Positions 7,269 through 53,231 of a stretch of DNA of 64,000 nt are shown one piece after another (within the stretch, counting starts at the first letter, position 1; each line of letters begins with the position of its first letter). The DNA comes from Escherichia phage slur14. Made by a program: the position numbers and the translations under genes. The DNA lies in sequence record NC_028448.1; one strand, 5' to 3'. The notes under the pieces were generated by a model. It ran no database searches. It was given only the letters and a program-made list of their open reading frames with translations, and had not been told where the DNA came from.

Positions 7269-7415
7269 TTAAAAATTCTCGTTAGAGATTAAAACTCGGT
7301 AGTCACGTTCTTCTGAATTTCATCTTCTTTCGACAGATCTCTCAGTTGTAGACTACCACATAGAATTGTTCGGTTAACTTATTATTCCGACACCCAATTC
7401 ATATTATTATTTATA

Positions 7416-49629: not shown

Positions 49630-50049
49630 TTATTCCTTAAAGTGTGCTTTCAACATCTGATACAAGGACCATGCCTGTTCATTATTTTCAATAGTAACTT
49701 TCATGACTGGGAATTTTGTGAAATCTTCTATTTGTTCTTGCTCTTCCTGCTCTTGTTCTTCAGCTGCCTGATATGGATTTTCCACTTCATCAAAGAACCC
49801 AGCTTCGTTAGTAGAAAGCCAGATAAAGTTTTCGTCAAGGATATCACCATGTGTTGCATATCCAACTGTGCCAGTAGATGTCACAATTTTAGTAGGACGA
49901 CCAAGATGGTCAACATCTAAAATTTTAAAAGGATGCATACCTAAGCGGCGTGCATAGATTCCGTTATCAGTATGGTCTTTAATAAAAGCTTCTTGAGCTT
50001 GTTTATTTTTAAATTGATACCATTTATTAACTTCAAATTTAATAGCCAT
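49630..50049 (-). CDS. hypothetical protein with acidic EQEQEEQEQ tract
   Basis: 139-aa ORF. Confidence 0.6.
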
Positions 50050-50264
50050 TAATAAATTTCCTTCCAGTAAGTTGTACCGTCTTCAGTGATTTCACGGAAT
50101 ACACCATAAATCGGTTGTTTATCACCAACCTTTTCATACACATAAACCGAAGTCAAGTGAGTAAACTTGATGGTGTGTTCCTTTTGAACTACTACCAAAT
50201 TTGGATCGAATAATACATCTTCAAATTCGTCATTAGTGCAGTTCTGAACAATTTTACGTTTCAT
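50049..50264 (-). CDS. hypothetical protein
   Basis: 71-aa ORF. Confidence 0.5.
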
Positions 50265-50277
50265 TACAATTTCCTCA

Positions 50278-50559
50278 TTAATTGAACAGTGGAGCGATGC
50301 GTTTCAGAAGAGTAGCAGCACCTTTGGCGAATTTTACATCATGAAAAACAGTTTCTTCTTCCGTTACAACACGAGCTTTAATGTTTTCACAATCCCAATT
50401 TTTACGAACAATCTTCAAAAGCTGCAGTAAATCTTTACATTCAGCAATATCGATAACACATCCACGAGAATCTTCCATTATCGCACGATAACCATAAGCC
50501 ATACCATAATCGTTGAAAGATTGCTCGATGATAATTAAGTTTTCCATTTTATTCTCCAA
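50278..50559 (-). CDS. hypothetical protein
   Basis: 93-aa ORF with promoter cassette upstream. Confidence 0.55.
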   Translation of the reverse strand: MENKMENLIIIEQSFNDYGMAYGYRAIMEDSRGCVIDIAECKDLLQLLKIVRKNWDCENIKARVVTEEETVFHDVKFAKGAATLLKRIAPLFN

Positions 50560-50644
50560 GTTGTTTTCTGTATCAGTAGTTGATATTGATATAGTACCAT
50601 AATCAACTACTGATGTATATAGTTTTATGAAAAAATTTTAAACT

Positions 50645-51136
50645 TTATGCATAACGAGCTTTGCTATAGTGTTTAATCCAGCTTTCAGGAATGACTTTGT
50701 ATGTTCCTAAAAATACCGTGTTGTACAACTTAACACCGTCTTCTACCCATTGATCGGTAATGTATGCACACATAGCGCGAGTACGGTTAACAACACCTTC
50801 CTCACCTTCAGTAAATTCAAACTCATAAGGAGCAACGAACTTGATAGCTTGACCGAGTTTCCACTTAAAGTCTACACCTACATGCGAAGTATCAATCGTT
50901 TCAATTCCTTTAGCGGGAACAGCTTTCAAAAACGCAGGCTCAAGAAATTTCCATCGAACATAACCAAACTGAGGTTTAGACATTCCATCTTTAGGAATGA
51001 TACGCACTTTTACTTCAGAATCTTCATCTTTAACACCATGTTTAAGCTGAATGCTTACGACTTCAACCAATTTTCCTGCTGCTTTAGAACGGGATTTATC
51101 AGATACACGAGCAATTTCACCGATATTAATATTCAT
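50645..51136 (-). CDS. motB: MotB, DNA-binding modifier of transcription
   Basis: 163 aa, MNINIGEIARVSDKSRSKAAGKLVEV...; position between 39 cluster and dexA. Confidence 0.8.
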   Translation of the reverse strand: MNINIGEIARVSDKSRSKAAGKLVEVVSIQLKHGVKDEDSEVKVRIIPKDGMSKPQFGYVRWKFLEPAFLKAVPAKGIETIDTSHVGVDFKWKLGQAIKFVAPYEFEFTEGEEGVVNRTRAMCAYITDQWVEDGVKLYNTVFLGTYKVIPESWIKHYSKARYA

Positions 51137-51209
51137 AATTATCTCTCACTTGTTAAAAAGATTTTATACTCCGCAGGACCATTATACTCTGGTCCCAAGA
51201 GTTTGTAAA

Positions 51210-51713
51210 CTAGCTTACACGAACATTAATCACTGCGCTGCGAGGAACTACAGAGTACTCTCCAGCATGAACTACATTAAGAAGTTCAACGCCATCTTCA
51301 ATCCACTGGTCAGTTACCCAACCGCCGACCGGATTCGCGAATGGACGACGAATGTAAACTGCCTTACACAACAAATCAGTCGGGTCTTCAATTTTTTCAA
51401 CTGGTGCCACATACATAGAAACTAAATCCATATCAATATGGGATTTTTCCTGTTCTTCTTTTTCAATTTCTGTCAATAGACTAAAATCTTTTTCATAAAT
51501 AATAAGCGATGACACCATTCCATAATAGTTTCTAATTTCAATATACATCATGCCGATAAGAATTCCGCTATTAACACTAATAACAGTAAAAGGATATCCG
51601 CCAGTTAAAGCAAGAAGTTCACAAAACTTATTATGAGCTGTATTAGACAGTACCGGAAAATTCTTAATTTCATCAAATTTTTTCAATTGATAAACAGCAT
51701 TATTTTTAATCAT
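51210..51713 (-). CDS. MotB C-terminal-domain paralogue
   Basis: 167 aa; C-terminus TDQWIEDGVELLNVVHAGEYSVVP aligns with MotB TDQWVEDGVKLYNTVFLGTYKVIP. Confidence 0.6.
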   Translation of the reverse strand: MIKNNAVYQLKKFDEIKNFPVLSNTAHNKFCELLALTGGYPFTVISVNSGILIGMMYIEIRNYYGMVSSLIIYEKDFSLLTEIEKEEQEKSHIDMDLVSMYVAPVEKIEDPTDLLCKAVYIRRPFANPVGGWVTDQWIEDGVELLNVVHAGEYSVVPRSAVINVRVS

Positions 51714-51723
51714 AATTTTCTCT

Positions 51724-52227
51724 TTAATCTAAGGTAATAAAGCCTTTTAGTTCGGCATGTGACTTGCGGAACATTACTTGATGCCCGCCAACGATAACTT
51801 GGTCATCTGGTACTTCGTATACAGCAAGATAAAATCCTTTCGAAGCTAATTCTTCACGCTCTTCTCGTGTGAACCATCTCATCATATCATATTCGCTAGC
51901 GAAAGCAAAATGATAAAGAGCTATAAACCATCCTGGAATATAGTGATCTACGCCTACATATTCTTCTTTCTCAAAATTAGTATTAATTGCTATATTAGCA
52001 TTTTTAACTAATAATTTGTCTTCATGCGGCACAGGAATTCTTTTATTATCATTACTATGATGCATAAAATTGGGTCTGTCATAACCTACGCGTAATAACC
52101 ACTCTTCACTCCATGAATCTATTATACTCCTGTACGGAGTTATTTGAACACAAAGATCTCGACGTATTGTTATAGCATCTTCATAATTAAGAATACTAAA
52201 TGATGATTCAACACGATAAATTTTCAT
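51724..52227 (-). CDS. hypothetical protein
   Basis: 167-aa ORF; early promoter upstream. Confidence 0.6.
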   Translation of the reverse strand: MKIYRVESSFSILNYEDAITIRRDLCVQITPYRSIIDSWSEEWLLRVGYDRPNFMHHSNDNKRIPVPHEDKLLVKNANIAINTNFEKEEYVGVDHYIPGWFIALYHFAFASEYDMMRWFTREEREELASKGFYLAVYEVPDDQVIVGGHQVMFRKSHAELKGFITLD

Positions 52228-52290
52228 TTTATTATCCTCAGTAGCTATGGTGTTATAATACCATAACTAACCGAGGAAGTAAACAACTTT

Positions 52291-52974
52291 TTATCGTTTA
52301 ATTGGAAGAGATAGAGGATCGCATTCTTCCTCTGACGGAGCATCTTCAAGACCCATAGCGTATCGCAAAGCATACTTCATCATCAGAATGTCTTTCGCAC
52401 AGTCATGAATAGAATCATGTGCAACGAATCCATCTAAAGTTCCTTTTGGAAGAGGACACGTGGTCATATCACGAACAAGCAGAAGTGCTTCAATTCTGGT
52501 ACGAATATCACGCTGATTCCAGAATTTACAAGGTTCTAACTTAAATGTATCAAGCTCATTCTCGGAAACGCCGTTAAGACGTTGAATATCGCGAATGAGA
52601 TCGACTAAAATTGGAAAATCAAACGACATTCCACGGCACCAACCTTGAGATTTCCAAGGATCGATGTTATGTGCATTGATGTAATCATTAAATTTTGCAA
52701 TACCATCGATAGTGCTTACATCTTCATCGGATGGTGCAATATTTTTTCGAGCTTCAGGAGATTGATTCTTCCACCATTCGATAGTACTTTTAGTAAAAAG
52801 ACGATGTCCTTTTTGGCTTTTTAAATCAAATTTGATTTTAATGCCACGTGAAACTAATTCATCAAATGTTTCAACCACTTCTGGATTAGGGTCAAAAGCA
52901 ATTACAGCTAAATCAATAACCGCTGCTTTTTCACCACTTCCCATTGTTTCAAAATCTATAATAAAATCAAACAT
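52291..52974 (-). CDS. dexA: exonuclease A (DEDD 3'-5' exonuclease)
   Basis: 227 aa, MFDFIIDFETMG... (exo I motif D-x-E). Confidence 0.9.
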   Translation of the reverse strand: MFDFIIDFETMGSGEKAAVIDLAVIAFDPNPEVVETFDELVSRGIKIKFDLKSQKGHRLFTKSTIEWWKNQSPEARKNIAPSDEDVSTIDGIAKFNDYINAHNIDPWKSQGWCRGMSFDFPILVDLIRDIQRLNGVSENELDTFKLEPCKFWNQRDIRTRIEALLLVRDMTTCPLPKGTLDGFVAHDSIHDCAKDILMMKYALRYAMGLEDAPSEEECDPLSLPIKR

Positions 52975-53231
52975 TAAATTTTCCTCGCTAAATCACGAAT
53001 TTGACCTACAGTATAGTCTTGAATATAAACTTTATTGATAGGCTCATCAATAAATTTTGCCATAGATTCAATGTCTTTTTGTATTTCTTCAAGACTGTAT
53101 ACTATCTTTAAAGCTTTTTCGCGAATAGTAATATTTTCAGGACCCTGATTTTCTTTAATGACAGCTTTAACATTTGCCATAAGAGATTTAAATTGGTACC
53201 AACTTAATTCAATCATTAATAATCGCCTCAT
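52974..53231 (-). CDS. hypothetical protein (dexA.1 position), tandem paralogue
   Basis: 85 aa; shares pattern with the next ORF (MRxL...QF...LEEIxxDL...DYxxGxI). Confidence 0.55.
   Translation of the reverse strand: MRRLLMIELSWYQFKSLMANVKAVIKENQGPENITIREKALKIVYSLEEIQKDIESMAKFIDEPINKVYIQDYTVGQIRDLARKI

Follow-up and report, generated by a model that had tools for sequence, protein, structure and literature searches.

The tandem genes motB.1 and motB of Escherichia phage slur14 encode proteins with homologous C-terminal domains and unrelated N-terminal domains

Gene organization of the motB locus

The stretch of DNA analysed here (hereafter designated the window) comprises 64,000 nucleotides of Escherichia phage slur14 (NC_028448.1), and its positions 50000–53000 match Escherichia phage slur03, a member of the T4-like genus Tequatrovirus, with 100% identity. 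All genes of the stretch 49630–52974 lie on the minus strand (Table 1). An earlier reading of this DNA, made without database searches (hereafter the sequence-only reading), had pointed out that the 167-residue ORF just upstream of motB ends in a segment related to the C-terminus of MotB; both ORFs were found at the positions claimed, and the two peptides quoted in that reading are present verbatim. In the T4 reference genome the gene order is dexA, motB.2, motB.1, motB, and cef, with motB.1 likewise directly upstream of motB, and the slur03 record labels the 167-residue ORF as putative MotB.1. Gene order and annotation thus identify this ORF as the motB.1 orthologue. In profile searches, the product of the neighboring motB.2 homologue, which is called "transcriptional regulator" in some records, showed no similarity to MotB or MotB.1.

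Within the 73 bp separating motB.1 from motB, a promoter-like site was found, putative and defined by consensus only, and in phage Kha5h a host-like promoter is annotated at the equivalent position. With this candidate promoter in the gap, motB could be transcribed without motB.1, so that co-regulation of the pair would not be obligatory.

Table 1 Genes, protein domains, and other features of the motB locus (positions in the window).
Feature	Position	Strand	Description
dexA	52291-52974	-	First of seven genes in transcription order
motB.2 homologue	51724-52227	-	Between dexA and motB.1
motB.1	51210-51713	-	167 aa plus stop; directly upstream of motB
MotB.1 N-terminal domain, residues 1-84	51462..51713	-	β-barrel plus one helix; sequence unrelated to MotB N-terminal domain
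MotB.1 linker insertion, residues 87-108	51390..51455	-	22 aa, EQEKSHIDMDLVSMYVAPVEKI; alignments with T4 and Kha5h MotB.1
MotB.1 C-terminal domain, residues 109-167	51213..51389	-	MotB-type; net charge -3
Shared core in MotB.1, residues 127-164	51222..51335	-	NPVGGWVTDQWIEDGVELLNVVHAGEYSVVPRSAVINV; hhalign; net charge -4
Sigma-70-type promoter-like site (putative)	51181-51209	-	TTTACA, 17-nt spacer, TATAAT; 11/12 matches (consensus scan)
motB	50645-51136	-	163 aa plus stop
MotB N-terminal domain, residues 1-68	50933..51136	-	Small β-barrel, net charge +4 (AlphaFold2, charge count)
MotB C-terminal domain, residues 90-163	50648..50869	-	All-β; net charge +1
Shared core in MotB, residues 120-157	50666..50779	-	RAMCAYITDQWVEDGVKLYNTVFLGTYKVIPESWIKHY; hhalign, BLASTP
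93-aa ORF	50278-50559	-	After motB
cef	50049-50264	-	After 93-aa ORF
goF	49630-50049	-	Last listed in transcription order

Domain layouts of MotB and MotB.1

MotB matched the Pfam family PF17613 (motB, modifier of transcription) over its full length (321.6 bits, E = 1e-96) with the full architecture of that family, that is, a KOW-like N-terminal domain followed by the C-terminal domain, and also matched phrog_1671 (E = 4e-76). The protein is basic, with a pI of 9.0 and a net charge of +4. AlphaFold2 modelled N-terminal strands at residues 8–11, 23–30, 41–46, 56–61, and 65–67 (pLDDT about 80–90) and five C-terminal strands, also of high pLDDT (81–93), at residues 97–110, 115–132, 135–142, 145–150, and 154–157. 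Son et al. (2021; Viruses 13:84, PMC7827196) have predicted a KOW motif at residues 6–45 and assigned the C-terminal domain by HHpred to cold-shock-like OB-folds, a class often binding nucleic acids; in their view, either domain could provide DNA binding. We regard it as near-certain that in MotB a disordered linker connects a KOW-like N-terminal barrel of basic charge to a small all-β C-terminal domain. When the PDB was searched by sequence, MotB alone gave a best E value of 0.3 and the family profile one of 0.71, and no solved MotB-family structure was found; NCBIfam gave no model matching any of the four proteins searched. The Foldseek matches nearest to the MotB model were tandem Tudor/Agenet domains, Spt5 KOW repeats, and IF5A (E = 2.2e-2), all of them weak (E of at least 4e-3), and the PDB matches were mostly of the Tudor, Agenet, and KOW types.

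MotB.1, an acidic protein (pI 4.95, net charge −7), matched phrog_2333 (E = 5e-82). It was also matched by an HMM of the MotB.1-type N-terminal domain (E = 3e-43) and, at residues 108–165, by a C-terminal-domain HMM built in this study (E = 5e-40). With a MotB.1-type N-terminus, a MotB-type C-terminus, and a gene directly upstream of motB, it belongs with the phrog_2333 proteins, which are Category 2 of Son et al. (2021). Kim et al. (2025; PMC12152347) have placed the MotB.1 N-terminus, together with GoF and Frd.2, in an LSm-like fold family, defined by a bent five-stranded antiparallel β-sheet structurally like GoF; the three N-terminal domains share no BLAST-detectable sequence similarity. 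Our AlphaFold2 model of this domain has five strands and one helix (E7–10, H24–37, E42–49, E55–61, E67–73, and E80–83; pLDDT about 64–86). Foldseek returned the relatives of MotB.1 itself and then a model of GoF, with a probability of 1.0 and an E value of only 2.3e-3; the PDB gave no significant match, Hfq/Sm proteins being absent from the top 50. It is near-certain that MotB.1 consists of an N-terminal barrel, probably LSm/SH3-like, a disordered linker, and a shortened MotB-type C-terminal domain.

The linker insertion of MotB.1, which is missing from the T4 and Kha5h proteins, holds a recurrent motif, D[MF]D..S.Y. Of 118 MotB.1-type proteins, 86 contain the pattern D[MFILTV]D[LVIM]..[..]Y exactly once, as compared with one of 104 MotB proteins; the position of the pattern varies, being at the N-terminus, between barrels, or right before the C-terminal domain. 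Residues 95–114 of MotB.1 were modelled as disordered by AlphaFold2, with pLDDT below 50. Such a motif, conserved and placed in a flexible linker, is a candidate binding site.

Homology and extent of the C-terminal domains

The C-terminal similarity between MotB and MotB.1 proved to be real in BLASTP, Smith–Waterman, and hhalign comparisons. BLASTP found a sole significant segment, residues 124–154 of MotB against 131–161 of MotB.1, with 16 identities and 22 positives in 31 positions (E = 9e-10), and the Smith–Waterman score of 98 was far above the 29 ± 4.6 obtained in 2000 shuffles (maximum 56, z = 14.8). The PF17613 profile, whose gathering cut-off is 25 bits, matched residues 122–161 of MotB.1 with 33.3 bits, over profile positions 114–153 of 162 only; MotB.1 is a partial, C-terminal member of this family. 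Moreover, phrog_1671 matched residues 92–163 of MotB.1 (E = 3.7e-15). Family collections comprised 231 relatives of MotB.1 and 105 of MotB. When full-length family alignments were compared by hhalign, 37 columns were aligned with 97.8% probability (E = 8.7e-13); with profiles of the C-terminal domains only, made from 20 distinct MotB and 64 distinct MotB.1-type sequences, the alignment extended over 38 columns with 99% probability (E = 9.2e-18), pairing residues 120–157 of MotB with 127–164 of MotB.1 (hereafter designated the shared core). The window contains no further copy of the core motif or the linker motif in any other frame. In contrast, the N-terminal halves differ, as the sequence-only reading had stated: their alignment score was 20 versus a shuffle mean of 21.7, and an HMM of the MotB N-terminal domain gave no match to MotB.1.

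The confident core spans three predicted β-strands. With its 37–38 residues and three strands, the similarity is strictly not confined to the short motif, the case in which the sequence-only reading would have been wrong, yet it still covers only about half of the MotB C-terminal domain. A relaxed alignment covers the whole domain, pairing LGQAIKFVAPYEF of MotB with LCKAVYIRRPF of MotB.1, followed by a 12-residue gap in MotB.1; the first C-terminal hairpin of MotB exceeds that of MotB.1 by about 12 residues. The AlphaFold2 models of the two C-terminal domains agree in strand order after a 7-residue offset, and pairwise similarity upstream of the core was not significant (p = 0.07). The match over the first strand is of low confidence, being suggested by this relaxed alignment and the modelled strand order. 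Structure prediction thus supported the relationship in strand order and was less firm on the fold itself, because the strands of the MotB.1 C-terminus (residues 118–123, 126–139, 142–150, and 153–155) reached a pLDDT of only about 50–57, probably owing to a 12-sequence alignment that is nearly invariant there. Since this model is of low confidence, the claim of a shared fold is carried mainly by the sequence statistics; furthermore, Foldseek gave no PDB match at E ≤ 0.001 for the MotB or MotB.1 model, so that no fold is assignable to the shared domain.

A convergent or chance short motif would account for a confident alignment limited to 37–38 residues and for the insignificant similarity upstream of it, but is extremely improbable in view of the z value of 14.8, the hhalign E value of 9e-18, the Pfam score above the gathering threshold, the matching predicted strand order, and the adjacency of the two genes with kept synteny. 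Collectively, it is concluded that the C-terminal domains of MotB and MotB.1 are homologous and that their N-terminal domains are unrelated.

Tandem duplication and its retention in T4-like phages

In the shared core, motB and motB.1 are 47% identical in nucleotide sequence and 24% identical at third codon positions, with a longest common run of 5 nt. The low third-position identity indicates an old duplication held by protein-level selection. At the protein level, conservation in both families is highest in the C-terminal domain, and the mean pairwise identity of the core is 83% within the 64 distinct MotB.1-type sequences, 69% within MotB, and 45% between the families. Recent gene conversion between motB and motB.1 was also considered and is ruled out by the nucleotide identities and the shortness of the common run.

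Among 20 IMG/VR loci encoding a MotB.1-type C-terminal domain, the MotB.1-type gene is directly followed by a canonical motB in 17, three of which, RB69-like, have two motB copies. The other three (L022–L024) have one hybrid gene, in which a weak MotB-like N-terminal domain is joined to a MotB.1-type C-terminal domain, and no separate motB nearby. In one metagenomic locus (L006), motB.1 is split into two ORFs. Overall, the MotB.1-type C-terminal domain is joined to several N-terminal architectures in proteins of 126 to 252 residues. The N-terminal architectures seen with the shared domain are KOW-like, LSm-like, or made up of other barrels in single or double copy, and the D[MF]D..S.Y linker motif may be present or absent. 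We regard it as near-certain that the pair goes back to an old tandem duplication, after which the N-terminal domain was replaced, and that it has been kept as a tandem across several T4-like genera. The proposal of a duplicated module with a swapped N-terminus is thereby confirmed as to the paralogy and the unrelated N-terminal domain, and Son et al. (2021) concluded likewise.

A frameshift in the T4 reference copy of motB.1

T4 motB.1, which the sequence-only reading had named for comparison, is an orthologue with the same relationship to MotB, though in its reference copy a frameshift interrupts the motif. In NC_000866.4/AF158101.6, motB.1 encodes 119 residues ending in TDQWIGRWR and a stop. 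The frame is lost inside TDQWIEDG through an additional G (ATTGGAAGATGG in place of ATTGAAGATGG), and the remainder of the domain is readable in the next frame. An 84-nt query over this site found a 100% match only in NC_000866.4 and AF158101.6, which are one sequence, whereas 13 other T4-type records from T4, T4T, RB55, and RB59 (HM137666, KJ477684-6, MT984581, MZ375356, OL964735, OL964745, OZ209023, OZ209057, OZ035787, KM607002, and KM607003) have a single gap relative to the query and encode an intact 143-residue protein, annotated with this length in MT984581. In the protein collection, the intact 143-residue T4-type form is present on 256 contigs and the 119-residue form on 2. These results suggest that the 119-residue, 13.8-kDa T4 MotB.1 is a truncated form occurring in one database record only.

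Table S4 of Son et al. (2021; PMC7827196) gives T4 MotB.1 a score of 56 and a coverage of 0.48, with scores of 106–142 for its relatives, and Kim et al. (2025; PMC12152347) used the NC_000866.4 sequence and gave MotB.1 as 13.8 kDa; neither paper mentions a truncation or frameshift. [quoted passage not shown] The parental allele of this deletion may already be truncated. Functional work on T4 MotB.1 may need repeating with the 143-residue protein, and the frameshift in the T4 reference is the one item on which specialists in T4 early proteins might act.

The frameshifted T4 copy, the split gene of L006, and the wild-type growth of the T4 deletion mutant could be taken to mean that motB.1 is a dispensable, decaying duplicate without a function of its own. 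We consider this very unlikely, because the 13 other T4-type records and almost all relatives have an intact gene, the core is 83% identical across genera despite diverged third codon positions, and only one database record carries the frameshift.

Charge distribution and possible roles of the shared domain

The sequence-only reading had called the shared piece a DNA-binding module. This designation is unsupported by the charge distribution: judged by net charge, which is a crude predictor, the piece is neutral to acidic in both families, with a core charge of 0 in MotB and −4 in MotB.1. The mean net charge is +4.1 for the MotB N-terminal domain (21 family members), −1.4 for MotB and −4.3 for MotB.1-type C-terminal domains, and −8.6 for whole MotB.1-type proteins. 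Moreover, the two families have 12 invariant columns in common (G, TDQW, E, G, L, N, V, G, VV), all of them hydrophobic or acidic and none basic. A local basic patch formed by K117, R122, R123, and R158 of MotB.1 could bind nucleic acid. The charge distribution may also guide the choice of the MotB domain to be examined for DNA binding.

T4 MotB is a basic and toxic protein that co-purifies with DNA and binds it tightly (PMC6070864). The literature on this early protein also shows co-purification with H-NS and StpA, and demonstrates DNA binding for the full-length protein only. DNA compaction by MotB has reportedly been described in a paper of Son et al. of 2021 in NAR (cited in PMC13096335). 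Given the tight DNA binding of MotB, the cold-shock-like OB-fold predicted by HHpred for its C-terminal domain (PMC7827196), the presence of IF5A among the weak Foldseek matches (E = 2.2e-2), and the conservation of the shared domain above all other parts of both families, this domain might be an OB-like nucleic-acid-binding module and MotB.1 a second DNA- or RNA-binding factor with an altered partner or target. A second factor with altered specificity, as the sequence-only reading had put it, is possible; this explanation is somewhat unlikely, since the core is neutral in MotB and acidic in MotB.1, as are on average both the C-terminal domain and the whole of MotB.1-type proteins, the two families have no conserved basic residue in common, the positive charge of MotB resides in its N-terminal domain, and Foldseek matched, weakly throughout, best to barrels of the tandem Tudor, Agenet, and KOW types and not to OB-folds.

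From the observed homology, domain layout, synteny, and charge distribution, we infer the following for the role of the shared domain and the function of MotB.1. The chances are about even that the shared C-terminal domain serves both proteins as a structural or interaction module and not as a DNA-binding surface. As such, it would bind a common partner or mediate self- or hetero-association, and the tight, non-specific DNA binding by MotB would occur mainly through the positively charged N-terminal domain. MotB.1, acidic throughout, would add to the same partner or complex an N-terminal activity of another kind, possibly directed at RNA or protein. Taken as one explanation, the identity of the gene pair, the domain layout, the duplication history, and this proposed mechanism together appear highly probable.

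Alternatively, MotB.1 might bind MotB itself through the shared C-terminal domain and, being acidic, modulate or antagonize the toxic, DNA-compacting MotB. The tandem pairing in 17 of 20 loci, the opposite charges (pI 9.0 versus 4.95), a common β-rich domain that could pair edge to edge, the toxicity of MotB, and the occurrence of T4 MotB.1 as monomer and dimer (PMC12152347) are consistent with such binding. We nevertheless judge it improbable: Kim et al. (PMC12152347) obtained no confident AlphaFold3 homomultimer of MotB.1, motB has its own promoter-like site so that co-regulation is not needed, and three loci have the hybrid gene without a separate motB. Similarly doubtful is that the shared domain is a docking module and not a DNA-binding domain, attached to interchangeable N-terminal barrels, with which acidic MotB.1-type proteins reach the partner of MotB, or MotB itself, and tune nucleoid remodelling. 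Should this docking hold, the published negative results on T4 MotB.1, based on the NC_000866.4 sequence (119 residues), may concern a protein without most of the domain. The short linker motif, present in MotB.1 of this phage and not in that of T4, is a candidate interaction site.

Comparison with known systems

The C-terminal paralogy of T4 MotB and MotB.1 is already known, having been published in 2021, as is the duplication hypothesis. Son et al. (2021; PMC7827196) reported that the two T4 proteins have a conserved C-terminal domain in common and differ in their N-terminal regions, that motB.1 is immediately upstream of motB, one being perhaps duplicated from the other, and that further homologue categories have other N-terminal domains. 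An assignment of the MotB.1 N-terminus to a fold followed in 2025 (Kim et al.; PMC12152347).

The small barrels of MotB may be compared with those of tandem Tudor/Agenet, Spt5 KOW, and IF5A proteins, which, like the MotB model, have two SH3-like or OB-like small barrels in a row; with TM-scores of about 0.25–0.3 and no sequence similarity, this likeness is an architectural analogy and not evidence of membership. The N-terminal domain of MotB.1 is modelled as a small antiparallel β-barrel, as are those of GoF and Frd.2; these two proteins, however, have different C-terminal domains, the MotB-type one being found, of the three, only in MotB.1. The present MotB.1 is 98% identical to that of Kha5h, and T4 MotB.1 (NP_049627, Category 2) is 76% identical and has the same types of N-terminal and C-terminal domains, with 119 residues in the reference and 143 in other T4 isolates, as compared with 167 here. 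T4 MotB, which is 88% identical to MotB of this phage, has the C-terminal β domain in common with MotB.1 (38 columns, about 45% identity between the families) and differs from it in the N-terminal barrel, which is KOW-like and basic in MotB (pI 9.0) and probably LSm-like in the acidic MotB.1 (pI 4.95).

Disrupted reading frames in motB.1

The T4 reference locus (L001, from NC_000866.4) carries an extra G within the TDQWIEDG codons of motB.1 at about 2296-2306 (about 7295-7305 in T4 record coordinates; counterpart in the window, 51297-51314), because of which the reference MotB.1 is cut to 119 aa. This nucleotide is absent from 13 other records (T4, T4T, RB55, and RB59), where the motB.1 product has 143 aa. 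Publications on T4 MotB.1 are based on the reference sequence, and the truncation goes unmentioned in both Son et al. 2021 (PMC7827196) and Kim et al. 2025 (PMC12152347). A broken gene was also seen in a metagenomic contig (L006, 5613-6117), in which a motB.1 96% identical to that of the window is divided into two overlapping ORFs of 93 and 85 aa; the reading frame was either shifted here in a separate, second event or misread during sequencing.

Linker motif and domain combinations

The linker insertion of the window's MotB.1 is predicted to be disordered (residues 87-108) and contains a short conserved motif, IDMDLVSMYVAPV, which occurs as one copy, at varying positions, in 86 of the 118 MotB.1-type proteins and is present in one of the 104 MotB proteins. 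The motif may thus mediate an interaction. In three IMG/VR loci (L022-L024), a weak MotB-like, KOW-type N-terminal domain is joined to a MotB.1-type C-terminal domain in a single hybrid gene, within 6 kb of which a separate motB was not found. Among the collected relatives, P0083, which is similar to the hybrid proteins, originates from a Klebsiella phage according to its name. The hybrid gene may be an ancestral or a fused form.

Coordinates of motB-related and neighbouring features
Feature	Location	Strand	Remarks
Hybrid gene	L022, L023 5776-6156; L024 5773-6246		also proteins P0049, P0083
22-aa linker insertion (vs T4 and Kha5h)	window 51390-51455	-	MotB.1 residues 87-108
93-aa ORF, phrog_3720 (unknown function)	window 50278-50559	-	between motB and cef
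motB.2 homologue	window 51724-52227	-	
motB.1 then two motB copies	L007 1341-2866; L008 5995-7466; L009 138-1342		

Neighbouring genes and comparison with T4 and RB69

The motB.2 homologue, named 'transcriptional regulator' in several GenBank records, gave no match in Pfam or to any MotB or MotB.1 domain HMM built here; the label looks like an annotation transferred from neighbours. The 81-aa protein of T4 dexA.2 (L001 4144-4389, NC_000866.4) is called 'dextranase' in RefSeq, apparently a misannotation derived from the gene name. Where the window has the phrog_3720 ORF, the T4 reference has merely a 171-bp unannotated gap. In the RB69-like loci L007-L009, one motB copy encodes 172-186 aa and the other a short, acidic protein of 139 aa, in agreement with the two motB genes of RB69 remarked by Son et al. 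(PMC7827196).
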